Shown one piece after another: positions 6,767 to 38,275 of a stretch of DNA of 45,146 bases. Position 1 is the stretch's first letter. Every line of letters begins with the position of its first letter. The stretch comes from Microcoleus vaginatus WJT46-NPBG5 (GTDB taxonomy: Bacteria; Cyanobacteriota; Cyanobacteriia; Cyanobacteriales; Oscillatoriaceae). The notes beneath the pieces were generated by a model. That model had not been told where the DNA came from. It was given only the letters and a program-made list of their open reading frames with translations, and did not search any database. The translations under genes were made by a program, and so were the position numbers. The DNA is taken from positions 1 through 45,146 of the forward strand of contig JAHHHM010000015.1 of assembly GCA_019359355.1 (NCBI GenBank). Direction: 5' to 3'.

Positions 6767-6831
6767 CCAAACATAAACCTGTACACTTTATTCTAATACG
6801 TCATTAAAGCAGCATTTGAGAGGATAAAATC

Positions 6832-7653
6832 ATGAAGATTGCCATTATCGGCTGTGGCTACGTCGGCAGTGCAATTGCCCGTCGGTGGCGTGAATTTGGC
6901 CATGTGGTGACAGCTACAACAACCACCCAAACTCGCGTGGCGGAACTTGAGGAGATCGCGCAGCAGGTGGTGGTGGTGAAAGGAAATGATGCCGGCGCAA
7001 TGCTTTCTGTGATTCAAGATCAAGATGCAGTGCTTTTGAGTGTGGGTGCTTCCAGGGGCGATGCTTACCGGGAAAGCTACCTAGATACAGCAAAAACACT
7101 GGTAGAACAGTTAAAGCAGACTTCGAGTGTGAAGCAGCTGATCTACACCGGCAGCTATAGTGTTTATGGGGATAAAAATGGGGAATGGGTGGATGAAGAA
7201 ACCCCCGTTGCACCGGCTAATGAAAATGGTGAAATTTTATCGGAGACAGAACAAGTGTTGTTAGGCGCTGCCGGTGAAAACTTGAAAGTTTGTATCCTAC
7301 GTTTAGGTGGAATTTACGGCCCAGGCCGGGAACTTGTCAAGATTTTCAGTCGGGCTGCCGGCACAACGCGTCCGGGTGACGGTGAAGATAGGACGAATTG
7401 GATTCACTTAGAAGACATTGTGGGGGCAATTGATTTTGCGCTAACAAAGCAATTACAAGGTATTTACAATCTTGTGCATGATGTTCCTCTTACATCCCGC
7501 GAGGTGATTGATCGGGTGTGCGAACGTCATAATTTAGAAAAGGTTTCTTGGGATGCTTCAGTCCCCTCAACTCGCCCTTATAACGCACAAGTCTCTAATC
7601 AAAAAATTAAGGCAGCCGGTTATACGCTAATTTATCCTGAGATGCTGCTTTAA
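6832..7653 (+). CDS. NAD(P)-binding SDR-family protein of the NAD-dependent epimerase/dehydratase-like type.
   Basis: N-terminal Rossmann motif MKIAIIGCGYVGSAIARRW. Length is about 270 aa. A GAGG RBS precedes the ATG. Confidence 0.75.
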   Translation: MKIAIIGCGYVGSAIARRWREFGHVVTATTTTQTRVAELEEIAQQVVVVKGNDAGAMLSVIQDQDAVLLSVGASRGDAYRESYLDTAKTLVEQLKQTSSVKQLIYTGSYSVYGDKNGEWVDEETPVAPANENGEILSETEQVLLGAAGENLKVCILRLGGIYGPGRELVKIFSRAAGTTRPGDGEDRTNWIHLEDIVGAIDFALTKQLQGIYNLVHDVPLTSREVIDRVCERHNLEKVSWDASVPSTRPYNAQVSNQKIKAAGYTLIYPEMLL

Positions 7654-7796
7654 AGTATCGGATTTGGCTTTGGGCACGCGCTGAAGAGGAAGGGCACCGA
7701 AACTCATGCGATGTAAATCTCTCTTGCCTTAATAATTAGCCTTTATTCCTAACCATTAGCCACTCAAAATAGGCGCGTTCACGTTAATAAGCCAGT

Positions 7797-8027
7797 ATGA
7801 AACCCGCAGAAACTTACAAACGTTGGATTATCCAGACCCAGCAAGTCTTTTATGTCGAAGTTTGGGACTCGGATGGTCATCATTATATTGCAGTTCGCAA
7901 CGCCAAGTCTGAGGATGAAGCAATTGAAATGGCTAAACGCTGGATTGATAAGTATGAAGTACAAGCCGACCAATTAAATTGTATTGATGGGTTTGGTGAT
8001 TTGCTAGATAATGAGTATGAATTTTAA
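7797..8027 (+). CDS. Small hypothetical protein of 76 aa.
   Basis: ATG ORF lying between two genes. No recognisable family. Confidence 0.4.
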   Translation: MKPAETYKRWIIQTQQVFYVEVWDSDGHHYIAVRNAKSEDEAIEMAKRWIDKYEVQADQLNCIDGFGDLLDNEYEF

Positions 8028-8039
8028 TCCAAGATGTAT

Positions 8040-8546
8040 TTAGATTCCTAACCGGGTTCTGATATTTTCTACAAGTGCTGCCGGCGGTTCAGTTACGTCT
8101 GCATAAAGCCCCTCTTTTGGCTCCTCAAGGCTATCAAATTGACTTCGCAATAAATCACTTTTCATAAAGTGATCCGCACGTAACCGCAGCCGTTGCTCGA
8201 TTGCCTCAAATGAACCTTTGAGGTACACAACTTTCATGCGTTCTCTATCCCGCAGAAGTAACTGACGGTAGCTCTCTTTAAGGGCTGAACACGCTAGCAC
8301 CACATTTTTGTCTTCCTGCAACCACCCATCAATAGCCCGTTGCAACGCTTCGATCCAAGGCTGCCGATCTGCATCATCTAGGGGAATGCCACGGCTCATT
8401 TTCTCAACATTTGCCAGCGGATGAAAAGCATCGGCATCACTGAAATGCCAGTTTAAAGATTGCGCTAGCAACAGACCAATTGTAGATTTGCCGGAGCCTG
8501 AAACTCCCATTACCAGAACGATCATCTCAATATTATCTGTTAACAA
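8040..8546 (-). CDS. gntK: Gluconokinase (GntK / thermoresistant glucokinase family P-loop kinase).
   Basis: Walker A motif VLVMGVSGSGKSTIG with E. coli GntK-like spacing from the start. The DADxFHP motif is present. Length is about 165 aa. Confidence 0.75.
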   Translation of the reverse strand: MLTDNIEMIVLVMGVSGSGKSTIGLLLAQSLNWHFSDADAFHPLANVEKMSRGIPLDDADRQPWIEALQRAIDGWLQEDKNVVLACSALKESYRQLLLRDRERMKVVYLKGSFEAIEQRLRLRADHFMKSDLLRSQFDSLEEPKEGLYADVTEPPAALVENIRTRLGI

Positions 8547-17646: not shown

Positions 17647-17701
17647 AAGGGAAATTTTTTGATTAAAAAGTGCCCCAGTCGTTGGTAGGCGGGACTGGAA
17701 A

Positions 17702-20140
17702 CTATGGCTTCAGAGGCACAAAGTCATAACCGGCACTACTGCCGGCAACTGGTTGAACTTGAACTAAAATTCCAATTCCAGGGATACGCTTACGATCACC
17801 GGAAGGCAAAAACTGCACTTTTCCAGTTGCACCTTCTGCTGCAAAACCGGCACCTGAAAGCACTTTTTGCAATCCGTGGCGGGTGCTACTTTGCTTCAAG
17901 CCGGCGACAATTGCTTGAGTCGTATCATAAGCCATTGCAGAGCGCCAATTCACAGGTGCCCCCCACAATGTCTTTGCTTTTTCAAGAAAGGGATTTTTTT
18001 GAGCGCTTCCAGGATGCCAAACCACAGCTAACACCATGCCATTAACATCAACTTGACCTAATTTAAGAGTATCAAAACTGTACATAGTAGAACTGCCAAA
18101 TAACGTGAGTTGCCCCTTATTGGCTTTGGCTAAATCAATTGCTTGATTGATTCTTTCCACTGATGGAGTCAGGAGCAAAGCATCAGCTCCATCTGCAATT
18201 GCGCTTGAGATCAAAATATTGGGATTGAAATTCGGGTTAGAAAAATCGCAGAGGATTGGGCTAACTTGCCCTCCTTCCTCCAGCACAGTATTTCGGAACT
18301 CTATTTTGATGGATTCACTATAAGGCGATTTTAGATCTGAACAGATAATAAATTTATTTTTGTGAGCTGTCTGGATGGCATAGTGTGAGAGGTTTTTCGC
18401 ATCCCGCCGGCTAGAAGTAACAGTCCGAAATATGTAGCTGCTAGTATAGGCAGTTTCCAAAGCACCACTGGTGGGAGAAATCATCACTAACCCGCCCTCC
18501 TGGTAAATTGGAGCGGCAGCGATAGAAACTTCACTGGCGTTATGACCAACAACTGCTAAAATCTGCTGATTATTGACGAATTCAGTGGCAATCTTTCGGG
18601 CGATTTCTGGCTTGTTATCATCATTGGCAATTGCAACTTGCAACAGCGCCCCGTTGATGCCAGTGCCGGCATTCACTTCATCCTGAACCTGAGCGACACC
18701 TCGCAGAATTTCTTTAGCGATATTAAGGTTGCCACCAATCGGAACGCTAACGGCAATTCTAATGGGATTTTTTGTGCCGGCAGCTTTGGCATTGTTGAGA
18801 TAAATCAGTGCCTCTGGATCGTTCGGATTAACTTGCAGAGAGGATTGCAATTTCTCCTGAGCCATAGCAAAGTCGCTGGTTGCAAACGCTTTGACTCCAG
18901 CCAACTTTTGAGGAGTGGTTCCATGCGTAATGAGAATTCTCTCTCCTAAACTGAATCGACTTAATTGCGGCAGAGATTTTAATGTTAATGAGGTGATTGC
19001 GACAACCACAATGCCCGCAGTAGCTAGCCCTAAAAATCGACCAAATTTTAACAATAAATTGTGGCTTTTAGGCCATTTCAGCGTTTGTTCAACTGGATTT
19101 TGGCAAATCACAGGCAACCAGGTGGCGCAAGGAAAATCTCCTTCCATTCCTTGCAGCTTTTCACGAGCTTTTCGTACTGCTAAATAAAAGCACTCGCCGG
19201 CTGCAAAAGTTTCTAAGAAATACTTCAAAAATGCTTCAGCTACGGGATCGGGTACGGGTTCCCGCATGACAATTAGCTGAGGGATATGAAATTGTGCTAA
19301 AGTTTGCGCTAATCCCAAGCCATCACAAGAGTTGAAAATTGCTAGTTTTAAGCTATGTTTAGTTGCGGCTTTCAGGGCATATTTTAATTCGTCAATGGTG
19401 AGACTTTCGGTTGGATTTATGTGAATTTTTCCGGCTTCATCTCCTGGCTCACTACAACTGTGGCCGGCAAAAAAGAGGATATCCCATCCCTGCTCATCCC
19501 AAAGCTGTTTATCTAGTTCTCTGCGAGTTGGCTCAACCAGCAAAGCTGTTTTTGCCTGGGGTAAGTTTTCTAGCAATTTTTGGTCCGCTTGAACGTCAAT
19601 TCCATCACTGCAACCCAAGATCGCTAGAATTCTCACTCGACCTTTAAGCGGCTTTGATTGTTGCTTTACCCAATCGTAGGAACTTAAAGCAATTTCAGTT
19701 TTGGAGTTATGTTCAAATAAATCCCATAGATGCCAGGGAAGTCGTCGCAGCCGATAATCTTCTGTTTGAATAATGATGCGAACTTCTTCAGAAGAGGTTA
19801 ATTGCTTGAGCAAACTTTCACGAATTCGCAGAAATGACTCGGCCCTCAGCCATGTGTTTAGGTTATAAACTAACTGTTGGGATAATCTGTGGCAGTTCTC
19901 CTTCAATTCGAGGCTAGAAACATTGGTGATTTGTCCGGGTTTCGCTTTGATTCGCACAGGGTTTCCCAGCCGGCGATAGGTTAACTGCCAAGATTCATGC
20001 TGTGCTGCTAACTCAGGTGCCGGCGGCAACTCACCTCGGACGCCCATTGATGCGGCTAACCCTTCTTCTCCAATTTCCAGCTTGACGCGAAAACCCCGAT
20101 CAAAGTCACCATCTAGCTTTAGGACAACTAATTTTCCCAT
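17702..20140 (-). CDS. Multidomain protein of 812 aa. From N to C it has an uncharacterised N-terminal domain of about 150 aa, a CHAT (caspase-HetF-like) protease domain, one TM helix, and a periplasmic type-I solute-binding domain (LivK/Peripla_BP_6-like).
   Basis: CHAT His/Cys dyad context: ILFFAGHS... and LAIFNSCDGLGLAQ. Hydrophobic helix FGRFLGLATAGIVVVAITSL. The C-terminal 400 aa has the PBP pattern (RIAVSVPIGGNLNIAKE...GINGALLQVAIANDDNKPE...ILAVVGHNASEVSIAAAPIYQEGGLVMISPTSG). Confidence 0.8.
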   Translation of the reverse strand: MGKLVVLKLDGDFDRGFRVKLEIGEEGLAASMGVRGELPPAPELAAQHESWQLTYRRLGNPVRIKAKPGQITNVSSLELKENCHRLSQQLVYNLNTWLRAESFLRIRESLLKQLTSSEEVRIIIQTEDYRLRRLPWHLWDLFEHNSKTEIALSSYDWVKQQSKPLKGRVRILAILGCSDGIDVQADQKLLENLPQAKTALLVEPTRRELDKQLWDEQGWDILFFAGHSCSEPGDEAGKIHINPTESLTIDELKYALKAATKHSLKLAIFNSCDGLGLAQTLAQFHIPQLIVMREPVPDPVAEAFLKYFLETFAAGECFYLAVRKAREKLQGMEGDFPCATWLPVICQNPVEQTLKWPKSHNLLLKFGRFLGLATAGIVVVAITSLTLKSLPQLSRFSLGERILITHGTTPQKLAGVKAFATSDFAMAQEKLQSSLQVNPNDPEALIYLNNAKAAGTKNPIRIAVSVPIGGNLNIAKEILRGVAQVQDEVNAGTGINGALLQVAIANDDNKPEIARKIATEFVNNQQILAVVGHNASEVSIAAAPIYQEGGLVMISPTSGALETAYTSSYIFRTVTSSRRDAKNLSHYAIQTAHKNKFIICSDLKSPYSESIKIEFRNTVLEEGGQVSPILCDFSNPNFNPNILISSAIADGADALLLTPSVERINQAIDLAKANKGQLTLFGSSTMYSFDTLKLGQVDVNGMVLAVVWHPGSAQKNPFLEKAKTLWGAPVNWRSAMAYDTTQAIVAGLKQSSTRHGLQKVLSGAGFAAEGATGKVQFLPSGDRKRIPGIGILVQVQPVAGSSAGYDFVPLKP

Positions 20141-20170: not shown

Positions 20171-21130
20171 TCAAATAGCAAAACTTTGTATAATATTTTC
20201 CTCACCAAAAGCAACTTTAACGCTAAAAGTTTCTCCTGGCAAGCCACTAAACTGTAATTGAATATAATTATCTGCATTTCTTGCTTGGGCTTCTAAAACT
20301 GTAGTTCCTTCATGATCGAGGACAAGCAGTTGCAGTTGCGCCGGCAGGTAACTATTTTCACCTGTGGGATGGACTTGTACGAGAATGTCTGTTTCTTGTT
20401 TGGATGCCGGCATTAAAGCAACCACCAAGGCTACAGGATTTCCTAATAATTGAATTCCTAAGTCGATGAGTTTACCTCGCTTAATCTCGGCTGCTTGATT
20501 TACAGTTTCCCTGATTGGATCGATACTTCTAAAGCTAAAAGCTAAACTCGCTTTCTCTGAACCTAGAAGTGCTTCTACAGTCTGCCAGCCGGTTTCAAAA
20601 ATGTTCTCAAACCACTGGCTCAAATTCACCGTTGTCTCTCTAGCATTTTTTAGCCGGCAGATATGATCAATTAAGTTATCAATCGGTTTAAAATCGGCAA
20701 TTTGCAGATGCTCTGGTGGCAGGAGTGGATCTACACTGGGGGCAAATCCTAGAAGTTCTACTTCTTCTAGATTCTCGTTAAATTGCACCCCTATATAACC
20801 GATACGATTTTCCGTCACTTCTGGGGGTAAATAACAAGCTGTTTCCCCAGGTAAAATTGGACGACATTCCAAATAACCAATCTCTGGTATGGCTAGATCG
20901 GCAATATTAAATACAGCCTGCATTCCCCTATGCCAACTATCACTTGTACTAAGATCCGTTTCTATTTTCAGCCATTTCAGATAGCTGTGAACCGCATAGA
21001 CAGCGAGGGTATTTAAATAGACTCGTTTTCCTTTTTGAGCAGTAGCTTGTTGTGTGGCAAACTGACACGCGATTGCGTGAGCGTCTCTTCCCAGCGGAAC
21101 GGTTAATTTTGGTCTTTTTGTGTTGTTCAT
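20171..21130 (-). CDS. DUF1822-like cyanobacterial protein of 319 aa, co-transcribed with the sigma-like gene upstream and the CHAT gene downstream.
   Basis: Clean ATG ORF. Its ATG overlaps the upstream gene's stop (ATGA at 21127-21130). The family call is from memory of recurrent sigma-like/DUF1822 pairing in cyanobacteria. Confidence 0.5.
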   Translation of the reverse strand: MNNTKRPKLTVPLGRDAHAIACQFATQQATAQKGKRVYLNTLAVYAVHSYLKWLKIETDLSTSDSWHRGMQAVFNIADLAIPEIGYLECRPILPGETACYLPPEVTENRIGYIGVQFNENLEEVELLGFAPSVDPLLPPEHLQIADFKPIDNLIDHICRLKNARETTVNLSQWFENIFETGWQTVEALLGSEKASLAFSFRSIDPIRETVNQAAEIKRGKLIDLGIQLLGNPVALVVALMPASKQETDILVQVHPTGENSYLPAQLQLLVLDHEGTTVLEAQARNADNYIQLQFSGLPGETFSVKVAFGEENIIQSFAI

Positions 21131-21828
21131 GGCTCTAAACTAGGCTGATACCCCTGATTTCTGGCAATTTCTTGTAAAAGCGGTAAGCATTTTCTCTTCC
21201 AGTGAGAAACAAGCGCTTGGTAGTTGATTTTTAACTCTCTGGCAATTTCAGATAATTTGTCTGGCGGTTCGTTTAAATAAAGCCGTTTGCTAAGAAGCCG
21301 GCAGTTACATTCAAAGTTGGCTTTCGGATGACATTTCTCTAGTTTTCCTTCTGGATCTTGCTGAATGTATTTTTCTATTTCTAACCCGATGCGTTGTTTT
21401 TCCTCTCTTTGAAGTTGTTCAATATATCCCTCAATTCCGCTGAGAGAGGGAGTACCAAAACCTGTTTCTGATAATTTCTCTAAAGGGTTAAAGTCAGCTT
21501 CATTATTCTCGCTTATTTCATTCAAACTACGCGAAAATCGTTCATCAGGTATATATAAATCTTGAATTCGCCAGTAAAGGTATCCATTAATCCACTTTAC
21601 TAAGCTAATCTGCACCGAAGGCGGACGCGGTTTAAAGGTATGAATATTTTGGCTTACCCACTCCCAGGTTCGATTCAAGGCTTCTAAATAGTCTGGGTGG
21701 GAAGATTTTGACAATCCTGGTAGCTGTTGGATGTGAGCAATCAGCCGATTGAGAGCTTTTTGTTTCTCCGGACTTGGCTCCGGGTATTTACAAACTTCTG
21801 CAATGAGTTTTTTTAGTTGTTCATCCAT
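21127..21828 (-). CDS. ECF/sigma-70-family-like protein of 233 aa, with a region-2-like and a region-4-like HTH segment.
   Basis: Region-2-like aromatic block ALNRTWEWVSQNIHTFKPRP...SLVKWINGYLYWRIQDLY. C-terminal region-4-like segment LSKRLYLNEPPDKLSEIARELKINYQALVSHWKRKCLPLL. Confidence 0.55.
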   Translation of the reverse strand: MDEQLKKLIAEVCKYPEPSPEKQKALNRLIAHIQQLPGLSKSSHPDYLEALNRTWEWVSQNIHTFKPRPPSVQISLVKWINGYLYWRIQDLYIPDERFSRSLNEISENNEADFNPLEKLSETGFGTPSLSGIEGYIEQLQREEKQRIGLEIEKYIQQDPEGKLEKCHPKANFECNCRLLSKRLYLNEPPDKLSEIARELKINYQALVSHWKRKCLPLLQEIARNQGYQPSLEP

Positions 21829-22106
21829 TGTGCTTAATTTCGTTGTCTAATGCCTCCTGTTCCTTTCAAGTTAACATAAAATCACCCTAATCGCTCATGA
21901 AAGATGCGCTCTTTTGAGATGCAAACTTTCTGTAATTAACTTTAGGAACGATTAGGGGGAAGGGGGTTCAGTTTTATTCAACTATTTGATTTATTTCATG
22001 AAATGATTCTTTTGTTGTTTGCTTTTGTTCTTCTTTGTTGCCGGCTACCCTACAATCTCAGATTATCTTTCATCCGCTTATAGCCTCCCTTACTAAAATT
22101 GCTGTA

Positions 22107-22604
22107 CTAATAACTACCGCCGTCGTAACTACTGCTACCACAGTCACTACTACTATAGCTGCTGCTGTCGGAACTGCTGCTGTCATAACTACTGCTATAG
22201 CTGCTGCTGTCATAACTGCTGCTTTCACAGTTTTCATAGCTGCCGGCATCATAGCTACTGCTGTCATGACTATTGCTGTCACAGTCATAGCTGCCAGCCT
22301 CATAGCTATTGCTGTTATTATTGCTTTCACAGTTTTCATAGCTGTCGGCATCATAAGTTCTGCCATAGCTGCTGATGTCAAAGGCACTACTGTCATAGCT
22401 GACATCATCGCAATAGCTGCCGGCATCAAAATCCGTGTTATGGGAGACGCGCTTGTACTTAGAGCCTTTTTTGAAAGGGTTAGATCCTGTAAAGTCTTTC
22501 CGCTTTTTGAGTTGTTTCCGGCTTTTTTTGCTAAGAAATCGGGCGATTGACCAAACAATTAATGCAGTCAGGATACTAATCAATACTAACGCCATAGAAT
22601 CCAT
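22107..22604 (-). CDS. Membrane-anchored protein with an N-terminal TM helix, a basic cluster, and then a Ser/Tyr/Asp/Cys-rich low-complexity tail with repeats of about 13 aa (SYDAGSYENCESS).
   Basis: The ATG start is followed by MALVLISILTALIVWSIARFL and then KKSRKQLKKRK, a positive-inside signal-anchor pattern. The tail repeats are visible at both DNA and protein level. Antisense and alternate-frame ORFs over the same DNA lack good starts. Confidence 0.45.
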   Translation of the reverse strand: MDSMALVLISILTALIVWSIARFLSKKSRKQLKKRKDFTGSNPFKKGSKYKRVSHNTDFDAGSYCDDVSYDSSAFDISSYGRTYDADSYENCESNNNSNSYEAGSYDCDSNSHDSSSYDAGSYENCESSSYDSSSYSSSYDSSSSDSSSYSSSDCGSSSYDGGSY

Positions 22605-22745: not shown

Positions 22746-24755
22746 CTAGCTGTAGACGAAGTAGCTTTCTGTCAGATTTAAACCTGTTAGCCCGGCAACC
22801 TTGGCAATGAGTTCATCTTTAGAACTTAAGCCAGATGTGCCATCATTATCGAGGTAGATATTAGTACAGGTCCCGACTGAGGATAAAATGTAGTCAGTTG
22901 CAGAACCCGCTAGTTGAATAAAATCTTCGCTGAGTTTAAAGCTTCTTAAGAGAGCAAAATCAGCACTCCCGCTATTACTGGAATTGCCATCATTGTAGTA
23001 GGCTCCTTTACCGGCATCTCCCAAGATAAACCGATCTGAACCGCTGCCTCCGGTGAGGGTATCTAGTTCGCCAACCCCTGGAGAAGTGGCTAAAGAGTCA
23101 CAGCCAATCAGAACATCTTTGCCGGAACCACCATTGAGCCAATCATCGCCGGCCCCACCATCAAGCGTATCTTTGCCGGCTCCCCCATTGAGGGTATCAT
23201 GACCCGTTCCCCCATTGAGGGTATCATGACCAGCACCGCCATCAAGCAAGTCATGGTCAGAACCGCCATCCAGTAAATCATGGCCCTCTAAGCCATCCAG
23301 CGTGTCCATCCCCATGCCGCCGTAAAGGCTATCATGCCCTGCCGTGCCAACCAGTAAATCATGGCCGGCGTTTCCTGTGAGAGTGTCATTGCCATCTGGT
23401 GGTTCACCGCCACCTGGAGGATTTAGGCTGAGTTGAGCCACCCAAACATCAGGCATCTCAGAATCATCAAAGATATTTCCGGCAGTATAAATATTGCCAG
23501 CACCATTTACGGCTACCCCTGACGAGGTATCCCGCCCAGGAGTGTTCAATGCTTTAACCCATTGTTGGTTGCCCTCAGCGTCATACTTGATAACCCAAGG
23601 ATCGGCATTGGGGCTGTCAAAAATTGCCGGCTCTCCAGTGCCTCCCGAAACGTAGACATTGCCGGCGTCATCTAATGCAATGCCATTGGCGTAATCATAA
23701 TCCGCAGTCCCCCACTGGTGAGACCACACTTGGTTGCCCTCAGAGTCATACTTGGCAGCCCAGGCATCAGTGCCAGAGGCTCTTCCCGAAATATAAAGGT
23801 TGCCAGCGCTATCGGTTTTAAAATCCTCTCTGCGGTAATCACTGGCAGCTCCCAACTGCTTCACCCAAAGCTGGTTGCCGGTGCTGTCGTATTTCGCAAT
23901 ATAGGTGTTATATTGACCCCCCAGATCCCCCTGCGTGTCTCCGCAAATGTAAACATTACCAGCACCATCAACGCCTACGTTCTGAGCACTGTCTGCACCG
24001 GCAGTTCCCCATTGCTTCACCCAAAGCTGGTTGCCGGTGCTGTCATACTTAGCAACCCAAGCATCAACAAACCCAGCACTGCTACCGCCTAAATCGCCAT
24101 AGGTTTCTCCCGAAACGTACAGGTTGCCCGTGCTATCGGTGGCTACGTCCTGTGAGTATTGAGGAAGTGCATTGCCAAACTGCTGCACCCAAATTTGGTT
24201 GCCTTGGGAGTCATACTTGGCAACGAAGGCGTCTTCATCGAAGATATAGCTTCCGGCTTTAGGGCTACCCCAAGCGCCTCTGGTATATCCTGTCAGGTAA
24301 ACATTGCCGGTGCTATCTGAAGTAAAGCCAAAACATTGCTCGGTAGTCTCTGTACCGAATTGCTTGAGCCAAAGCTGGTTGCCTTCGGCGCTATATTTAG
24401 CAACCCACACGTCATTTTCCCCAGCACTGCTACTCCCCAAAGTGCCATTGGTGTCTCCCGAAATGTAAACATTCCCCGCGTTATCCGTAGCGATGTCAGT
24501 AGTGGAGTCCCAACTGGAAGTCCCAAACTGCTTAATCCATGCGGTATTGGAGCCAGTGCCGGCATCATTACTGTTAAAATCCGTCTGAGTCACCGGCTCA
24601 CTTGTGCTGCCGGCAAGGCTAAATGTTTCGCTTTCGCCAGCATCACTCAAGCTGCCTTTATCGAGTTCGGTGTTGTTCAAATCAGAAGTAACCGAGTCTT
24701 TTTCAGAAACGTGGGACTGCATTATGTCTTCAATCGGTAGCTGATTACTATTCAT
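22746..24755 (-). CDS. Large secreted protein with N-terminal SBBP-type beta-propeller repeats and C-terminal RTX (haemolysin-type Ca-binding GGxGxD) repeats. It is a probable type I secretion substrate.
   Basis: About 8 repeats of GNVY(V/I)SG.T.G.LGG...G..DA(W/F)VAKYDS.GNQLWVKQ.GT. A nonapeptide run follows (GGAGHDTLNGGTGHDTLNGGAGKDTLDGGAGDDWLNGGSGKD). There is no N-terminal signal peptide, which is consistent with C-terminal T1SS secretion. Confidence 0.8.
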   Translation of the reverse strand: MNSNQLPIEDIMQSHVSEKDSVTSDLNNTELDKGSLSDAGESETFSLAGSTSEPVTQTDFNSNDAGTGSNTAWIKQFGTSSWDSTTDIATDNAGNVYISGDTNGTLGSSSAGENDVWVAKYSAEGNQLWLKQFGTETTEQCFGFTSDSTGNVYLTGYTRGAWGSPKAGSYIFDEDAFVAKYDSQGNQIWVQQFGNALPQYSQDVATDSTGNLYVSGETYGDLGGSSAGFVDAWVAKYDSTGNQLWVKQWGTAGADSAQNVGVDGAGNVYICGDTQGDLGGQYNTYIAKYDSTGNQLWVKQLGAASDYRREDFKTDSAGNLYISGRASGTDAWAAKYDSEGNQVWSHQWGTADYDYANGIALDDAGNVYVSGGTGEPAIFDSPNADPWVIKYDAEGNQQWVKALNTPGRDTSSGVAVNGAGNIYTAGNIFDDSEMPDVWVAQLSLNPPGGGEPPDGNDTLTGNAGHDLLVGTAGHDSLYGGMGMDTLDGLEGHDLLDGGSDHDLLDGGAGHDTLNGGTGHDTLNGGAGKDTLDGGAGDDWLNGGSGKDVLIGCDSLATSPGVGELDTLTGGSGSDRFILGDAGKGAYYNDGNSSNSGSADFALLRSFKLSEDFIQLAGSATDYILSSVGTCTNIYLDNDGTSGLSSKDELIAKVAGLTGLNLTESYFVYS

Positions 24756-25208: not shown

Positions 25209-28200
25209 TTAAAAATGACAGGGACGTGGTCTAGCAATTCCATAGCCTTGGGCGTAATCGACTCCCAGCGTCCGCAGCTTCATGAGGATTGCATCATTTT
25301 CCACAAACTCAGCAATCGTTTGTAACCCCATGACATGAGCGATGCGGTTAATCGCTTCTATCATTGCAAAATCAAGTGGGTTATCCACAACATTCTTGAC
25401 AAAACTGCCATCAATTTTAAGATAATCCACCGGCAGATTTTTTAAATAAGCAAAAGAAGACGTGCCGCTGCCAAAATCATCTAAAGCAAAATAACAGCCC
25501 AATTTCTTGAAAGTGTGGATGAACTGAGCAACTTTTGTTAAATTAGCCAGGGCGACTGTTTCTGGAATTTCAAAACAAAGAACGTGAGGCGGAACTTGAT
25601 GCAAAGCGAATTGCTCTTGCAGAAAGTCATGGAACTGGTCATCGTTAAGGGTGGCACCAGAAAGATTAATACCATAAAGCCTTTGCAAACGACCGGCAGG
25701 CTGTTGAGAGGTGCCGGCATCCAACTGATTGTGATGCGCTGACAGGTGAGTGAATAGCGTGCGAATCACCCAGCGATCAATCGTGTGCATAATGTTGTAG
25801 CGTTCCGCTGCGGGAATAAACGCCATTGGCGAAACCAGAGCGCCGGCTTCATCTTCAAGGCGCAGCAGCACTTCATAATGCTCTCTGTTGAATGAGCTAT
25901 CTGTAATTGGAACAATCGGTTGGAAAAAAAGGCGAAATCGATTCTCTTCAAACCCTTGCGTAATTCGAGAAACCCATTGCATTTGGCTGTGCTGTTGCGC
26001 CAATTCGGTTTCATCACTCTGATGAACGTGCACTCGATTTCGCCCCTGTTCTTTTGCAGCATAACAAGCCCCATCTGCTGCATTTAATACATGGGTCAAA
26101 CTACAACTTTCGGCTGTAATTGCAACCAAACCAATACTGGCACCAATGCTAAAGGTTTTATCCTCCCAAACAAAACGAAATGCCTGGATACTTTCACGCA
26201 GCGAATTTGCAATTCGCCGTGCCTGTTCTAAAGGACATTGGTGAAGCAGCACGGCAAATTCATCGCCGCCAAGACGAGCGAGACTATCCGTTTTACGCAC
26301 ACCGGCTTGTAAAAGGGTGCTAATTTGACGCAGCAATTCATCTCCTGCCACATGACCGCAAGTATCATTAACAATCTTGAACCGATCAAGATCCAGATAA
26401 CAAAGTGCGTGCTGTTGATTTTGCGTCTGAGCAATCAGCAAAGCCCGTTTCAAGTGTTGTTCAAATTCGCGCCGGTTGATTAAGCCGGTTAAGGCATCAT
26501 GACTGGCTTGCCAGGATAGCTGACGGGCAAGGGCGCGTTCTTCTGTAACATCGTGAAACACTAGCACCGCACCGATGATTTGACCGGCACTGGCGAGAAT
26601 GGGTGCAACCGATTCATCAATGGCAAACTCTGTACCGTCCTTGGCAATGAGTAGGGTTGGGTTAGCCAGTTCTCCAATGCGGTTGCCACGCAGGGCGGCT
26701 TCTACCGGGTTTTCCACCGGCTCACGGGTGATTTCGTGTACAAGCCGAAACACTTCGCTTACTGGCTTGCCAATCGCGTCTTGAGCCGGCCAGCCGGTCA
26801 ATCTTTGGGCTGCGGGATTGACAGAGGTAATATAGCCTAAAGCATTCGTGGTAATGACCGCATCGCAAATTGAGTGCAACGTGATCTGAGCTAGTTCTTT
26901 CTCTTGCAACAGCGCTTGTTCAACGCATTGGCGTTCGATGATTTCCTGGCGCAGTTTTGCATTCGCTGTTTCGAGTTCAGCAGTGCGCTCTTTCACCAGT
27001 TCTTGCAGGTGTTCCTTATGCTCACGCAGCTGTTTTTCCGCCCGTTTGCGCTCTACAATTTCCACAACTAGCTGGTCGTTAGATTCTTTTAAGGCGGCAG
27101 TGCGTTCCTCAACTCGAATTTCGAGCTGTTCCTTTGCCTCTGTCAGTGCAGCTTGTGCCCGCTGGCGCTCGGTGATATCGATGCCGGTGGCGATGATATA
27201 TTTGGTTGAGCCGTCTGGGTCGCAAAGCACGGTATTTGTCCAAGCGATGAGCCGGCAATTTCCAGTTTTTGTCACCCAGTAATTTTCATATTGGTGCGGA
27301 CACTGGCTTGTTTGCAGTTCTTTAAAAACCGCAACCGCCGGCTCAACCTCTTCAGGAAGCAGCAACAAATCCCAGAACACCCGGCCTTCCGCTTCCTGCG
27401 CTGAGTATCCGGTGGTTTGCTCGCAGCACCGATTAAAGCGGATAATTCGCCCTTTTGGGTCAAGAACCACGACTAAAGCACCGGCCGTATCCAACACGGT
27501 TGTAACAAAGTTACGTTCCTCTCGTAAGGCTTCTTCAGCGGCTTTACGTTCTGTAATGTCTCTTGCTACCCAAATCACCTTGTCTACCTGCATTGGCGAA
27601 ATGCTAGCGGCAAACCATCGAGTGGGCATCTGTCCCTGCGCCCCTGCCGACTCTCGCATAAGCAGGCTGTACTCAACATTAATCATCTGCCCCGTTTCTA
27701 AGGCCCGATGGATATAGCTGAGAAACAGTTCAGCTTGGGATGGCTCAAAAACCTCATGGAGTTCGCGGCCAATTAGCTCAGTTGCCGGTTTGTACAAAAG
27801 TGTGGGATTTGTGGGCGCAATTTTAAGATAGCGTCCTTGCGCGTTGAAAACGACGATGACATCGGGTATTGCCGCTAATATGACGCGAAGTTCAGCTTCT
27901 GAAGTCCGCAGTGCTTTTGCCGTCCATTCCCGTTCAGCAATCTCAAGTTGCAGTTGCTCATTCGCCTTCTTGAGTTTCCTGTCTTCTGGGGGTAATAGGG
28001 GGGTGGCAAGCTCCTCTACGGTAGGTTTTAGCTCCTTATTGGCCTTCTTCATAGCTGCTTCTGTCTGATCGCACTCAGTAATGTATGTGATGGTGTCCGA
28101 GAAATGGCGAGTTTGGCCTGCCGGTGTCAGCAAGGGCTTTTCTATTGTGTGAAACCTATTCAGGTTAGGCAGAAAGTGCTTGACTTCTGCTGGGGTTTGA

Positions 28201-29042
28201 TCGAAGTCGGTATCGCTACCACCGTACTCGATTTGGGCACCTGTTTGGTTGGGCCAGATACACGTTTCCGGCCAGACATTGATGCCGGCACCAGCATGAT
28301 CCACCAACTGACCTTTCGCACTCAGCCAGATGACACCGGCATCTAAAAACAAACAATTATCCTCATGCCGGCAATCTTTCCTTCTAAAAATTTTGTGAGT
28401 TTGAAAGGCTGGCCAGTAATTTTCTAAGCAGTTCTGTAAATCCCCAACATCCATGTCTGGCCGGCAGCTCTTGCCCAGTTGTTTTTGAAGGATTCTGTCT
28501 GTAAATTGTAACCAAAGTTGATCAAAAAAGATATCAAGCTTATCTGGCCCAGAAACCCCTACTTTCATCGGCACTTGATTGGCAATATATTGGCAACCTT
28601 TTTCAGGCGCTTCCCATGAGTTTAACCAAGCCGGCCCAGAAAACTCAAAGATCCCCAGATAGTTTTTATTTTTTCCCTTCCCTATTCTTTGTCCTTGAAT
28701 TTCGCAATTTGTGGGCGCACAGATGAAAAATCTTGCCGGTTCCCCACTTTCTTCCACCTTCTCAATCACAAAGCGACTACAAGAAATCCTGTTATTGCTC
28801 AAGCAGAGTGGCAATCGGTTAAGAGCGACTTTTAACAAAACTTGATGAAGATGGCTATCTGCAACTGCAATAGGTTCCAGAGCGATACTCCTTTCGTAGC
28901 GAGGGGGATAATTTGGATGGTGAGTTACAGCAGCAGCGAGTACCCCGACAAAGTTGCTTTGAATTGGTTGTACACTCCAGCCGTCGATTAATAGCGCTGC
29001 GGTGTTCCACAATAGAATGCGCCCATTACGATTGCCGGTCAT
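25209..29042 (-). CDS. Multidomain c-di-GMP signalling protein: an N-terminal sensory region of about 330 aa (possibly DICT-like), a coiled coil, three or four PAS/PAC domains, a GGDEF domain and an EAL domain.
   Basis: The GGDEF motif RLGGDEFAVLL is intact. EAL-domain motifs are present (QPIV..., DDFGSGTSSFAYL, KIDGSFV). PAS hallmarks are flanked by coiled-coil repeats. The first ATG is at 29042, since the ORF-track start at 29057 is TTG. Confidence 0.9.
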   Translation of the reverse strand: MTGNRNGRILLWNTAALLIDGWSVQPIQSNFVGVLAAAVTHHPNYPPRYERSIALEPIAVADSHLHQVLLKVALNRLPLCLSNNRISCSRFVIEKVEESGEPARFFICAPTNCEIQGQRIGKGKNKNYLGIFEFSGPAWLNSWEAPEKGCQYIANQVPMKVGVSGPDKLDIFFDQLWLQFTDRILQKQLGKSCRPDMDVGDLQNCLENYWPAFQTHKIFRRKDCRHEDNCLFLDAGVIWLSAKGQLVDHAGAGINVWPETCIWPNQTGAQIEYGGSDTDFDQTPAEVKHFLPNLNRFHTIEKPLLTPAGQTRHFSDTITYITECDQTEAAMKKANKELKPTVEELATPLLPPEDRKLKKANEQLQLEIAEREWTAKALRTSEAELRVILAAIPDVIVVFNAQGRYLKIAPTNPTLLYKPATELIGRELHEVFEPSQAELFLSYIHRALETGQMINVEYSLLMRESAGAQGQMPTRWFAASISPMQVDKVIWVARDITERKAAEEALREERNFVTTVLDTAGALVVVLDPKGRIIRFNRCCEQTTGYSAQEAEGRVFWDLLLLPEEVEPAVAVFKELQTSQCPHQYENYWVTKTGNCRLIAWTNTVLCDPDGSTKYIIATGIDITERQRAQAALTEAKEQLEIRVEERTAALKESNDQLVVEIVERKRAEKQLREHKEHLQELVKERTAELETANAKLRQEIIERQCVEQALLQEKELAQITLHSICDAVITTNALGYITSVNPAAQRLTGWPAQDAIGKPVSEVFRLVHEITREPVENPVEAALRGNRIGELANPTLLIAKDGTEFAIDESVAPILASAGQIIGAVLVFHDVTEERALARQLSWQASHDALTGLINRREFEQHLKRALLIAQTQNQQHALCYLDLDRFKIVNDTCGHVAGDELLRQISTLLQAGVRKTDSLARLGGDEFAVLLHQCPLEQARRIANSLRESIQAFRFVWEDKTFSIGASIGLVAITAESCSLTHVLNAADGACYAAKEQGRNRVHVHQSDETELAQQHSQMQWVSRITQGFEENRFRLFFQPIVPITDSSFNREHYEVLLRLEDEAGALVSPMAFIPAAERYNIMHTIDRWVIRTLFTHLSAHHNQLDAGTSQQPAGRLQRLYGINLSGATLNDDQFHDFLQEQFALHQVPPHVLCFEIPETVALANLTKVAQFIHTFKKLGCYFALDDFGSGTSSFAYLKNLPVDYLKIDGSFVKNVVDNPLDFAMIEAINRIAHVMGLQTIAEFVENDAILMKLRTLGVDYAQGYGIARPRPCHF

Positions 29043-29626
29043 GACAAAATTATTCAAATTCTGCCTACTCTCGGCGGGGTTAGGTTACTGTTGAGAGTGC
29101 CCGGACAGATGCTTATCTTCATGGGCCGGCAGGAGAGACAGCCATATTTATTCTCTCAAATTTACCAGCGGCTGCGGCTGTTGGGAGAAAAACTGTTTCG
29201 ACATTTGCTCAATATTGAAAACTTAAATATCTCAGTGATTTATTTAGCAATCTTGGGAATTTTCTCCTTGTTTATTAAAATATAAACACTCATTAATTGT
29301 TTCGTTTTCTACTTCCTCGACGCAAATTTCCCCGTTCCACCCCAATTTAGAGTTGTTATAAAATTCTTTCTCCTAAACAACCAAATTTGTCAAATTTCTA
29401 ATTCTATGTGACAGAAAAGATTGATATCGGCTTTCAATCAGTTGCGATTTGAGCGTTCCAGCTCGCTCAGAACTTTAATAATTGCAGAGTCAGGCCCAAC
29501 CGGAATATTTTCAAAATTTAACTTTCCTACGGTAATCTTACTAAAATACAGTCTCTCACTTGCAGAGGAATTAAGTTACAGAAAAACTTAAAATTTTGAA
29601 TAAGATTTCACTCTGGTAAATTAATT

Positions 29627-35402: not shown

Positions 35403-38147
35403 TTAAATAGTCCTCGCGGGAACGAGTGCCACCCGAAAACCGATGTTGTAGTGCCTGTTATCCGGCCCGTACGAGTCACGAGTCGCACTGCGGCAGTAGC
35501 TGGGGAAGTAGTTCCAAGAACCTCCACGCTGCAACCGGCGATTACTATCTCCGCCACTTTCCCAAGCACTGCCATCAGAAGTAGCACCGTTGTAGTTTTC
35601 ATGCCAGATATCTTGACACCACTCGCAAACATTGCCGTGCATATCGTACAGCCCAAAGGCATTGGGCGGGAAACTCCCGACATCAGTTGTCTGTTTTCGA
35701 TATTGACCCTTTGGCTCAGAAGCGTAGGTATAATTCCCATAATAGTTGGCTAAATCTGGGGTGATTGTCTCGCCAAAGTGAAAGGGTGTAGTGGTGCCGG
35801 CGCGACAGGCATATTCCCACTCTGCCTCACTGGGTAAGCGGTAGTTGCGCCCTGTTATTTGCGAGAGTTTCTGGCAAAATTTAACGGCATCATTCCAAGA
35901 TACATTTTCCACCGGCCTGTTATTTTCTTTAAATTCAGCGGGGTTATTCCCCATAAATTCAGCGGGGTTCTTCCCCATCAGCGTTTGCCACAGGGCATTG
36001 TTCCAAGATAGATTTTCCACCGGCCTGTTATTTCCTTTAAATTCAGCGGGGTTATTCCCCATCACCGCTTGCCACTGTGCCTGGGTGATGGGATATTTGC
36101 CCAGGAAAAATGGCTGTACTGTTACCCGATGCTGGGGACTTTCACCGCTATCTCGTTCTTTTTCCGTGTCTGGGGAACCCATGAGAAATGTGCCGCCCTT
36201 AATTGACACCATTTCCAAACTGACATTGTTGCCGAGTTTTTCTGCAAAAACGTCCGCTTGTCCTTGCTGTCGGCTAACAATTTCACCTCTAGCATCGACG
36301 GTAACAGTTGTGAATTGAAAAGAGGAAGTTGGAAGAACCGGCGCTGCGACTACTGTACTCGGTTGAGATAGCACGGAAGGAGTGGGAAGAACCGGCGCTG
36401 AGATCGCTGCGGGAACGAGTGCCACCCGAAAACCGATGTAGACGTCCCTGCGGCCCGGCACGTCGAAGTTACGACTCGCACTGCGGCAGCTCCTGGAGTT
36501 GAAGTACCAACAACCTCCACGCAGCATCCGGCGATTGCTATCTCCTCCACTTTCCCAAGCACTGCTATTAGAAGGCGCACCGTTGTAATTCTCATGGTAG
36601 ACATCTTGACACCACTCGTAAACATTGCCATGCATATCGTACAGTCCGAAGGCGTTGGGGGGGAAACTCCCGACATCGGTTGTTTGTTGTCGCCAAACAC
36701 CTTTTGATGCTGAGGCATAGGTGTAGTTGCCATCATAGTTAACTAAATCAGGCGTGATTGTCTCGCCAAAGTAAAACGGGGTGGTGGTGCCGGCGCGACA
36801 GGCATATTCCCACTCTGGCTCGCTGGGTAAGCGGTAGCAGCGTCCCATTTTTAGTGAGAGTTTCTGACAAAATGCAACGGCATCATCCCAAGATACCTTT
36901 TCCACCGGCCTGTTATTTCCTTTAAAATTAGCCGGGTTATTGCCCATCACGGCTTGCCACTGTGCTTGAGTAATGGGATATTTGCATAGGAAAAACGGCT
37001 GTACCTTTACCCAATGCTGCGGGCTTTCATGGCTATATCGCTTTTCTTCCATGTCTGGGGAACCCATGAGAAATGTGCCGCCCTTAATTGCCACCATTTC
37101 CAAACTGACATTGTTGCCGAGTTTTTCTGTAAAAACGTCTGCTTGTCCTTGCTGACTGCTAACAATTTTTCCTCTGATATCAACGGTAACAGTTGTGAAT
37201 TGAAAGGGATAAGTTGGAAGAACCGGCGCTGCGATTACTGTAGTCTGTTGAGATGGCACGGAAGGAGTGGGAAGAACCGGCGCTGCGATCACTGTACTTG
37301 TTTGAGATGGAGCTATTGGCAACGTAGATGCTGGCAGGGAATTCAGTGCTTGCAAAGCTTCTGTCGCATTCGCATAGCGCCCAGTGAAGTGATCTCGCAC
37401 CATTTTGCTTAAAATCTCTGCTAACCCATCGCTCACAGAAGCGTGATTTTTCCAAATCACTTCACCGTCATTATCTTCTTCGAGTAAATCAGGCTCGATG
37501 CCAGTCAAAGCAAAAATTACTGTCCTCCCCAGTGCATAAATGTCACTGCTTGGTTTTGGCTTGCCCATTGCCTGTTCGCTGGGCATAAAACCAAGCGTTC
37601 CAATAGAAACCGTGCAGCTAGTTTTTCCTGATAAAATTGTCTTCTGGATGCCAATCTCCTTAACTGCCCCAAAATCAATGAGCATCAACTTGCCATCTTT
37701 TCGTCGCATGATATTATGGGGCTTAATATCTCGATGGATGATATTGTTCTGGTGAACATAGGCCAGAATTTCTAAAACATCCTGCAACAATTTAATCGCA
37801 TAAGTTTCACTTAACTTTTTGCCCGGACTCAATTCTTTGCTTAAGTCATGCCCTTCGATAAATTCCTGAATGAGATAAAATTCTTGATTTTCTTCAAAAT
37901 AAGCAAACAACTTGGGAATGCGATCATGGTTTTGCGCCAGTTTATATAAAATTTCTGCTTCTTTTTGAAATAAACGCTGGATATCAGGTTCGATAGTTTG
38001 GGGGTGAAGCCGCTTTACAACACATTTAGGCTTCGGGGTGGCGGGAATATCTAAATCATTTGCCAAATAGGTTTCCCCAAACCCGCCGCTTCCCAGCAGT
38101 TTGACGATTTCGTAGCGATTCCGTAGTATGGTGCCGGCAACGAGCAT
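35403..38147 (-). CDS. Ser/Thr protein kinase fused to two tandem FGE-sulfatase (formylglycine-generating-enzyme / SUMF1-like) domains.
   Basis: Kinase motifs GSGGFGETY, VKRL, HRDIKPHNIM and DFG are present. There are two copies of the FGE pattern (MV.IKGGTFLMGSP...RVTVQPFFLGKYPITQAQWQAVMG...WEYACRAGTTTPF..G...NV.EW). A GGAG RBS precedes the ATG at 38147, and an alternative ATG lies at 38198. Confidence 0.85.
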   Translation of the reverse strand: MLVAGTILRNRYEIVKLLGSGGFGETYLANDLDIPATPKPKCVVKRLHPQTIEPDIQRLFQKEAEILYKLAQNHDRIPKLFAYFEENQEFYLIQEFIEGHDLSKELSPGKKLSETYAIKLLQDVLEILAYVHQNNIIHRDIKPHNIMRRKDGKLMLIDFGAVKEIGIQKTILSGKTSCTVSIGTLGFMPSEQAMGKPKPSSDIYALGRTVIFALTGIEPDLLEEDNDGEVIWKNHASVSDGLAEILSKMVRDHFTGRYANATEALQALNSLPASTLPIAPSQTSTVIAAPVLPTPSVPSQQTTVIAAPVLPTYPFQFTTVTVDIRGKIVSSQQGQADVFTEKLGNNVSLEMVAIKGGTFLMGSPDMEEKRYSHESPQHWVKVQPFFLCKYPITQAQWQAVMGNNPANFKGNNRPVEKVSWDDAVAFCQKLSLKMGRCYRLPSEPEWEYACRAGTTTPFYFGETITPDLVNYDGNYTYASASKGVWRQQTTDVGSFPPNAFGLYDMHGNVYEWCQDVYHENYNGAPSNSSAWESGGDSNRRMLRGGCWYFNSRSCRSASRNFDVPGRRDVYIGFRVALVPAAISAPVLPTPSVLSQPSTVVAAPVLPTSSFQFTTVTVDARGEIVSRQQGQADVFAEKLGNNVSLEMVSIKGGTFLMGSPDTEKERDSGESPQHRVTVQPFFLGKYPITQAQWQAVMGNNPAEFKGNNRPVENLSWNNALWQTLMGKNPAEFMGNNPAEFKENNRPVENVSWNDAVKFCQKLSQITGRNYRLPSEAEWEYACRAGTTTPFHFGETITPDLANYYGNYTYASEPKGQYRKQTTDVGSFPPNAFGLYDMHGNVCEWCQDIWHENYNGATSDGSAWESGGDSNRRLQRGGSWNYFPSYCRSATRDSYGPDNRHYNIGFRVALVPARTI

Positions 38148-38275
38148 AGTCTGGACTCCGGGCAGTGGCAATTTAATTGATTTTCGCATAATTGCCATTG
38201 CTCCAGCACCGTACTCGTATCAGCTATCTTGCTACTCTTAACAAATCTTATTAAAAAATAAGACCCTGTTTAAAA

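Follow-up and report, generated by a model that had tools for sequence, protein, structure and literature searches.

A CHAT protease joined through a single membrane helix to a type-I solute-binding domain and encoded with DUF1822 and ECF-sigma-like genes in Microcoleus vaginatus

What kind of protein is encoded by a cyanobacterial gene that is named as a transport component and whose product carries a caspase-like protease domain next to a solute-binding domain? This question is raised by a locus in contig JAHHHM010000015.1 of Microcoleus vaginatus WJT46-NPBG5 (assembly GCA_019359355.1), analyzed over positions 1 to 45,146 (the window). The gene runs from ATG to TAG on the reverse strand and encodes 812 residues (Table 1). 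The protein, hereafter the receptor, is identical to GenBank entry MBW4681567.1 from a Microcoleus vaginatus metagenome-assembled genome (MAG), which is named 'ABC transporter substrate-binding protein' (ABC, ATP-binding cassette), with JGI naming it likewise. Pfam assigns residues 194-334 to CHAT (PF12770; E 1.1e-12, 48.4 bits, cut-off 24) and residues 459-780 to Peripla_BP_6 (PF13458; E 1.7e-30, 107.3 bits, cut-off 31.7), the latter stretch being overlapped by ANF_receptor (E 2.5e-9). The original prediction, made from the DNA letters and their translations, had proposed the order CHAT, single transmembrane (TM) helix and type-I solute-binding domain, and this order is confirmed by Pfam and hydropathy, as is the solute-binding fold of the C-terminal domain by the Peripla_BP_6 match above threshold and by related solved structures. 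With profile matches of this strength, a long open reading frame (ORF) and many full-length homologs, chance is excluded as an origin of the architecture. In an alignment of the receptor family with 26 homologs (alignment A1), His227 (in FFAGHS) and Cys272 (in FNSCDG) are invariant in 26/26, and in 62 homologs that carry different C-terminal domains each is kept at a level of 90% or more. The receptor thus scores above the curated threshold of the profile for CHAT / separase-type proteases and retains their His-Cys dyad, and its CHAT domain is, judged from sequence, an active-type caspase-like protease domain with the dyad intact.

The sole strongly hydrophobic segment of the receptor, residues 369-387 (FLGLATAGIVVVAITSLTL), averages 2.17 on the Kyte-Doolittle scale over 19 residues, every other window staying at or below 1.4. 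One such segment is found at the same position in 26/26 homologs (score 1.7-2.7 in 25, 1.43 in one); the sequence of the helix itself is not conserved among them, and Lys plus Arg in the 15-residue flanks number 86 on the N-terminal side versus 53 on the C-terminal side. Residues 394-812 are 49-59% identical to many stand-alone proteins of 450-520 residues, most of which consist of a short basic stretch, a hydrophobic signal-anchor and a Ser/Thr/Pro-rich linker followed by the R-x-S-x-G-x-x-I-L motif that also opens the receptor module, and the signal-anchor of these homologs points to the module being a self-contained unit that is exported and tethered to the membrane. All 44 positions that do not vary among the fused receptors are conserved to the same degree in 51 homologs that stand alone or are linked to kinases, Ser397, Gly399, Leu403, Lys412, Asp441-Glu443, Tyr447 and Asn450 being invariant in A1 and in these 51, and the Cys600/Cys631 pair, a possible disulfide, is invariant in fused, stand-alone and kinase-linked contexts. 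Four lines of sequence evidence were used to read the topology, namely TM position, charge bias, signal-anchored homologs and invariant residues. They strongly indicate a receptor with its N-terminus inside and its C-terminus outside and with an extracytoplasmic binding domain, so that the predicted topology stands. An inverted or soluble arrangement, in which the hydrophobic segment would be no membrane helix and the binding domain would lie in the cytoplasm, is opposed by each of these observations, the Cys pair included, and by CHASE2-type relatives that have the same layout; we regard it as very improbable.

The receptor gene is the last of three genes on the same strand, the order being ECF-sigma-like gene (ECF, extracytoplasmic function), DUF1822 gene and CHAT receptor gene. 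The stop codon of gene 1 overlaps the start codon of gene 2 (ATGA), and 30 nucleotides separate gene 2 from the CHAT gene. The same three-gene order is found in Anabaena cylindrica, Planktothrix, Nostocaceae and Leptothermofonsia. In a phmmer scan of the ORFs in 79 genome loci, nearly all loci with the N-terminal domain, CHAT and upstream DNA had a DUF1822 gene before the CHAT gene and most of them an ECF-sigma-like gene of ~205-235 codons before DUF1822, with gene 1 homologs at the matching operon position giving phmmer E values of 1e-9 to 1e-104. With a DUF1822 gene preceding almost everywhere that upstream DNA is present and a sigma-like gene before it in most cases, the term 'one-component', under which the protein was first described, is not apt, although sensor and enzyme do share one chain. 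Within the window there are no further copies of the sigma/DUF1822/CHAT system.

Gene 1 is called 'hypothetical protein' in GenBank (MBW4681569.1). Among 20 of its positional homologs, three match Pfam Sigma70_r2 (best 2.6e-6) and five match TIGR02937 sigma70-ECF (best 1.6e-5) plus many other ECF models, and one homolog weakly matches the 'type III-E CRISPR-associated RpoE-like sigma factor' model (E 0.007). Aligned with E. coli RpoE by hhalign, the gene 1 family runs colinear through both sigma2 and sigma4 (148 columns, E 0.03), the window protein having an extra insertion of ~20 residues between the sigma2-like and sigma4-like regions. Direct recognition of the protein itself being absent, its sigma assignment rests on these homolog matches and on hhalign, which together indicate, if indirectly, that gene 1 encodes an ECF-sigma-like protein and that the receptor has a neighboring sigma gene.

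Table 1. Positions of the operon, its domains and related features (window coordinates unless a locus number L is given; gene 3 coordinates include the stop codon)
Feature	Position	Strand	Basis
Gene 1, 233-aa ECF-sigma-like protein with sigma2-like and sigma4-like regions	21127..21828	-	homolog matches, hhalign
Gene 2, DUF1822 protein, 319 aa, short form	20171..21130	-	Pfam DUF1822, E 2.4e-77
Gene 3 (last in operon), CHAT receptor	17702..20140	-	ORF, Pfam, hydropathy, homolog alignment
N-terminal alpha+beta domain (EACC2), residues 1-165	19646..20140	-	read as pseudo-protease half of CHAT module
Active CHAT (caspase-like) protease domain, residues 166-355	19076..19645	-	Pfam CHAT, conserved dyad
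His227 codon	19460-19462	-	invariant in alignment A1
Cys272 codon	19325-19327	-	invariant in alignment A1
Single TM helix, residues 369-387	18980..19036	-	Kyte-Doolittle, position kept in homologs
Juxtamembrane strand motif (R-x-S-x-G-x-x-I-L) and TPR-like hairpin (…NDPE-x-LIYLNNA), residues 394-455	18776..18961	-	invariant residues
Type-I solute-binding domain (Peripla_BP_6 / ANF_receptor), residues 456-812, with Cys600 and Cys631	17705..18775	-	Pfam
Candidate terminator hairpin (CCAGTC…GACTGG, then GGCAC TTTTT) after receptor stop	17665..17698	-	by eye, weak
Stand-alone module copies near sigma-like gene	L003:1391-2809, L059:2441-3862, L008:1295-2695, L019:285-1706

The N-terminal domain of the receptor, residues 1-165, was used in a profile search over 1.84 billion cluster representatives, of which 2,057 matched at E<=1e-3 and 665 at E<=1e-30; in every match longer than ~250 residues, among the matches listed, CHAT follows directly. 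An AlphaFold model of this domain (40-sequence alignment) has a predicted local distance difference test score (pLDDT) of 88, a predicted template modeling score (pTM) of 0.79 and the element order b1-b2-b3-a1-a2-a3-b4-a-b5, and its best matches are CFAP46, separase and the TPR-CHAT protein of Craspase. As the catalytic domain was absent from the model, the matched element would be one that separase and CHAT proteins have and that plain caspases lack. In Csx29, the pseudo-protease domain spans residues 424-551 and the active protease residues 552-751 (bioRxiv 10.1101/2022.08.17.504292), and these halves are comparable in size to receptor residues 1-165 and 166-355. On the strength of the model, residues 1-165 look like the pseudo-protease half of a two-part separase-type CHAT module. 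It had initially been suggested that the first ~150 residues could be an adaptor-type or effector-associated domain, an idea that gives way to that of a constant CHAT partner.

A system with these parts has been described computationally. Kaur et al. (eLife 2021, PMC8195603) reported a constant EACC2 and caspase module with a variable C-terminus and with ECF sigma and DUF1822 neighbors, and in their system, as in the receptor, the sensor region after caspase/CHAT is variable and may be extracellular behind a TM helix. Three of their architectures were recovered in our searches (EACC2 with caspase and CHASE2, pentapeptide repeats with EACC2 and caspase, and EACC2 with caspase, nSTAND1 and beta-propeller), and residues 1-165 fit the EACC2 domain when identity is judged by matching architectures. 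The receptor locus likewise has an alpha+beta domain followed by CHAT, a variable C-terminus, a DUF1822 neighbor and, indirectly, an ECF sigma neighbor, and on domain content and gene neighborhood the receptor system is a type-I binding-domain member of the system of Kaur et al. The main text and searchable supplements of PMC8195603 do not name a type-I solute-binding variant; the text speaks of 'several small-molecule-binding domains'. There, EACC2 is called a novel domain, whereas the model obtained here resembles known proteins of the separase and TPR-CHAT kind.

How widespread is this architecture, and how fixed is its sensor? A homolog search was performed over 5.8 billion proteins, the best 120 matches of which were examined: nearly all have CHAT together with Peripla_BP_6, and they form two classes, one of 800-870 residues and one of ~1,240 residues in which the binding module occurs twice in tandem. 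When one genome per species was scanned, at least 587 relatives were returned. The 79 retained loci come from cyanobacteria (Nostoc, Anabaena, Fischerella, Planktothrix, Pseudanabaena, Coleofasciculus, Rivularia, Moorena, Leptolyngbya and others), except for one from a Sericytochromatia MAG. The architecture, held to be unusual in the original prediction, is therefore odd beside textbook signaling, yet common in cyanobacteria. Turning to other sensors, CHASE2 is found beyond the N-terminal domain and CHAT in 23/62 representatives without a type-I binding module, and further proteins of this kind carry NB-ARC, NACHT or nSTAND1 nucleoside triphosphatases (NTPases) with WD40, TPR or HEAT arrays, Ser/Thr kinases, type-II PBP_like_2, PsbP_2, COP23 with Trypsin_2, or N-terminal pentapeptide repeats; the type-I binding module is present in ~19 of the best 150 N-terminal-domain matches. 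The sigma-like and DUF1822 proteins of the window are 66% and 60% identical to those of a CHASE2-type locus (L080) and 59% and 61% identical to those of a locus with a type-I binding module (L019), and this equal closeness points to recent sensor exchange. These comparisons demonstrate, at the level of sequence, a constant sigma/DUF1822/EACC2-CHAT core with interchangeable sensors. The ~1,240-residue class (locus L004:5001-8741; ~40 proteins, for instance P0002-P0023) has its tandem type-I modules after the TM helix, some with extra TPR matches. Locus L016, from a Candidatus Sericytochromatia MAG of the non-photosynthetic sister lineage, has a full-length homolog with CHAT, TM helix and binding domain and an upstream DUF1822 fragment; the system may predate oxygenic cyanobacteria or may have been transferred.

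We next consider the periplasmic module and its ligand. The nearest solved structures to the binding domain are distant ones of the branched-chain-amino-acid type (3hut, 4mlc, 3td9 and LivJ, E 7e-17 to 1e-8), and fold and Pfam family are common to the receptor and LivJ/LivK. In LivJ, Thr102, Tyr202 and Glu226 hold the amino-acid backbone groups. When the receptor family is aligned with the LivJ sequence, the equivalent of Ser79 (Ser536) is invariant and that of Ala100 is an invariant Thr557, and the equivalents of Thr102, Tyr202 and Glu226 are G/F/S, S/H and S/P respectively, the C-lobe alignment being uncertain. Of the LivJ polar contacts only that of Ser79 is thus conserved, unlike the three others, and the amino-acid ligand that had been guessed at on account of the fold finds no backing. 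According to the database naming, the protein would be membrane-anchored and would bind substrate for an ABC transporter of branched-chain amino acids, a reading that agrees with the entries of both NCBI and JGI and with the LIV-type (Leu/Ile/Val) proteins being the closest solved structures, and that we consider effectively refuted, giving it hardly any chance at all. Against it are 355 cytoplasmic residues with an intact dyad, the incomplete LivJ contacts, a score of 65.7 bits against a cut-off of 477 with the NCBIfam LIV-binding subfamily model NF011933, and the genomic context: ABC permease and ATPase genes are absent around the receptor gene and none is conserved beside the stand-alone paralogs, the neighbors of which show no recurrent partner and include no LIV-type ABC genes. 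The receptor also differs from LivJ/LivK in being membrane-tethered, in lacking a transporter partner and in having an extra TPR-like element.

Since conservation of the module is near-identical in its fused and free forms, it is suggested that both share one ligand class. Free copies occur in two settings. Stand-alone, signal-anchored copies (~470 residues, 49-59% identity) precede the sigma-like gene at a short distance in Planktothrix, Pseudanabaena and Limnofasciculus, and tandem pairs of the stand-alone module are found in Microcoleus and related loci (L046-L050, L055); such copies could be co-receptors or decoys. In locus L027 (213-2582, forward strand), a Ser/Thr protein kinase is joined via a TM segment to the same periplasmic module, and one sensor would thus feed kinase as well as protease outputs in cyanobacteria.

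What, then, would the protease act on? The DUF1822 gene lies immediately upstream of the CHAT gene on the same strand, CHAT substrates are commonly encoded beside the protease (PMC9729208), and DUF1822 is a candidate partner or substrate. Its model (45 homologs, pLDDT 85.6) divides into an N-domain (residues 9-196) and a C-terminal beta-sandwich, joined by a disordered linker (197-215). The linker, which follows a conserved Phe200-Arg201 and is exactly where longer homologs carry a HEAT-like insert, is a candidate cleavage site on the basis of this model. The window protein has neither TRADD-N nor a TPR or HEAT insert (a TRADD-N domain was considered and dropped, there being no Pfam match), and with TRADD-N and TPR absent it corresponds to the 'TRADD-N-independent' version of Kaur et al. 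These authors label DUF1822 proteins TRADD-N+TPR, whereas the short form in the window would be a nuclease-fold domain plus a beta-sandwich. At locus L084 (4088-5971, forward strand), one gene fuses a sigma4/GerE-type helix-turn-helix (HTH), TRADD-like_N (PF20694, E 4e-12) and DUF1822, a Rosetta-stone-type fusion by which an HTH is physically linked to DUF1822; fusions of HTH, TRADD-N and TPR are also listed by Kaur et al. (PMC8195603). The gene directly downstream of the L084 fusion (6001-8463) encodes the N-terminal domain, CHAT, COP23 and a trypsin-like domain, that is, two proteases per chain.

We propose a protease relay in which a ligand outside activates CHAT inside, DUF1822 or the receptor itself is cut and a sigma factor is controlled, and we see the chances that this is right as about even. 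In such a relay, a periplasmic ligand would be bound by the membrane-tethered module (strand, TPR-like hairpin and type-I domain), and ligand-induced closure or re-packing of the binding domains would rearrange the receptor across its single helix, as in natriuretic-peptide-type receptors. The CHAT active site would be switched from a resting to an active state, the active protease would cut DUF1822 at its disordered linker, the likeliest target, or itself, and through this cut the ECF-like sigma factor encoded in the operon would change in activity, and transcription with it. The direction of signaling, the mechanism of activation, the substrate and the sigma output are what we infer here. 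A more specific version, in which ligand-gated CHAT cuts the DUF1822 linker and thereby frees or activates the ECF-type sigma factor, by a route that is independent of regulated intramembrane proteolysis (RIP), widespread in cyanobacteria, equipped with swappable sensors and parallel to Craspase-Csx30-RpoE, we put forward tentatively and as rather doubtful.

Precedents for single elements of the relay exist. In Craspase, the TPR-CHAT protease (Csx29) stays inactive until it receives a signal and then cleaves Csx30, the product of a neighboring gene that forms a complex with the sigma factor RpoE (PMC9729208). Like the receptor, Craspase has a separase-type CHAT split into a pseudo-protease and an active domain and an ECF-type sigma partner (bioRxiv 10.1101/2022.08.17.504292), but it is associated with gRAMP/Cas7-11 and a CRISPR array and carries an N-terminal TPR domain on the protease where the receptor begins directly with the N-terminal alpha+beta domain; Cas domains are absent among the large window ORFs that were scanned, a CRISPR array not having been searched for. 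DdvA-DdvS of Myxococcus xanthus combines, in a single-pass protein, TPR-CHAT and ECF sigma control, the CHAT domain being resting and proposed to be signal-activated (PMC11506125). In DdvA, the topology is reversed, with CHAT periplasmic and a zinc-binding anti-sigma domain cytoplasmic, whereas the receptor has its CHAT domain in the cytoplasm and a solute-binding domain as sensor, an anti-sigma domain not being detected. Compared with eukaryotic separase, the receptor is bacterial and membrane-anchored and is without a helical/TPR scaffold or a known securin-type inhibitor. HetF of heterocyst-forming cyanobacteria is likewise a cyanobacterial CHAT protein of which the receptor is no ortholog, the NCBIfam HetF equivalog model giving 20.2 bits against a cut-off of 1,200.

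Layout and ectodomain fold are shared with the natriuretic-peptide receptor guanylyl cyclases, and likewise with the cyanobacterial proteins that join a kinase through a TM segment to a type-I binding domain. Natriuretic-peptide receptors signal via ligand-induced re-orientation of a dimer. Unlike the enzyme of guanylyl cyclase or kinase receptors, the cytoplasmic enzyme here is a protease, with an irreversible output. A classical ECF sigma/anti-sigma pair with RIP, in which the partner protein has an anti-sigma domain (ASD/ZAS) and usually spans the membrane, was considered for the operon and rejected, DUF1822 having no anti-sigma Pfam match and no TM helix being evident in its model.

Several observations weigh against the proposed relay. 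The window gene 1 product has no direct Pfam or NCBIfam match, and sequence and profile searches of the PDB with it gave nothing significant, the sole sigma match being R. sphaeroides RpoE at E 1.8. Pfam finds no anti-sigma domain in DUF1822. With the LivJ contact set kept only in part, an amino-acid ligand is not supported, and finally the DUF1822 N-domain model has a PD-(D/E)xK nuclease-type fold, which would suit an effector role too. This last point bears on the main rival, a conflict or 'apoptosis-like' immunity system in which the periplasmic domain would sense a molecule linked to invaders or damage, the caspase would activate itself and release or activate DUF1822 as a nuclease-type effector bringing about dormancy or death, and sigma control would be a secondary transcriptional arm. 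Asp78 and Glu88 of DUF1822 are conserved and, together with Arg90 on strands 78-81 and 85-92, form the presumed D…(D/E)xK site; the family has been placed among counter-invader systems (PMC8195603); and the N-terminal domain and CHAT are elsewhere fused to the STAND NTPases with WD40/TPR/HEAT arrays (NACHT, NB-ARC, nSTAND1) noted above, fusions typical of such systems. However, the equivalent of the catalytic Lys is Arg90, which is Leu or Cys in 2/20 homologs, and a variable Arg in place of Lys makes nuclease activity of DUF1822 doubtful. The commonest sensors, CHASE2 and the periplasmic binding domain, are moreover classical sensors of environmental small molecules, the chromosomal context is ordinary, with no mobile-element or defense genes adjoining the operon, and none of the three proteins has a significant PADLOC match, the only hit of any kind (E 0.005) being that of the sigma-like protein. 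Weighing both sides, we think the immunity reading unlikely.

A third possibility starts from the receptor itself, which would cut itself and release a soluble fragment of N-terminal domain and CHAT with a role at another place, DUF1822 and sigma regulating expression only. Such self-cleavage agrees with the 'autopeptidase activation' proposed by Kaur et al. (PMC8195603) and with the model of autoproteolysis in trans proposed for the CHAT-containing anti-sigma protein DdvA (PMC11506125), and a low-confidence loop (residues 60-75) with a conserved Q-x-T-N-x-S motif would offer a site. It leaves unexplained, however, the near-constant adjacency of DUF1822, its usually tight coupling to the sigma-like gene and the HTH-DUF1822 fusions; we consider it quite improbable as the whole account. 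The loop in question (residues 60-76, window 19913..19963, reverse strand) is the sole low-confidence one of the N-terminal domain model (pLDDT ~59-75). It varies in length between homologs and has the conserved motif R63 … Q70-x-T72-N-x-S75, and going by the model it could be an autoinhibitory or cleavage segment.

Should the protease relay hold, a large family of cyanobacterial receptors turns an extracellular chemical signal into irreversible intracellular proteolysis that drives a dedicated sigma factor, by a route distinct from two-component, Ser/Thr-kinase and classical anti-sigma/RIP signaling. The operon is tractable, with three genes, a mutable dyad, a soluble periplasmic domain and an obvious candidate substrate. 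The named entries of the family that were encountered are nearly always 'ABC transporter substrate-binding protein' or 'branched-chain amino acid transport system substrate-binding protein', naming that is very probably wrong and that distorts inventories of transport capacity. Of possible use beyond this locus are two structural observations, the resemblance of EACC2 to the separase-type pseudo-protease and that of the DUF1822 core to a PD-(D/E)xK-fold domain with a beta-sandwich.

Scanning the operon for consensus promoters and terminators gave results no better than shuffled sequence. The hairpin listed in Table 1 was missed by the consensus terminator scan because its T-run begins 5 nucleotides past the stem. 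An ECF-type promoter match (TGAAC-N15-CGTTC, ~21950..21975, reverse strand, 141 nucleotides upstream of gene 1) was rejected, as nothing comparable is conserved in 22 related loci, and is probably due to chance. Just upstream of the operon, three ORFs overlap (22107..22604 and 22070..22558, reverse strand, and 22035..22550, forward strand), one of which would encode 165 residues with a hydrophobic N-terminus and a repetitive tail rich in Ser, Tyr and Asp and has no Pfam match. Further upstream on the same strand as the operon (22746..24755, reverse strand) is a gene for a 669-residue, probably secreted protein in which SBBP beta-propeller repeats (E 1e-41) precede RTX calcium-binding repeats. 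Two larger genes were also noted in the window: 25209..29057 (reverse strand) encodes a 1,282-residue multi-PAS / GGDEF / EAL cyclic-di-GMP protein, ordinary in filamentous cyanobacteria, and 35403..38198 (reverse strand) encodes a 931-residue Ser/Thr kinase, again with an unusual C-terminal domain, here of the FGE-sulfatase type (E 1e-121, matched in two stretches) and presumably sensory.

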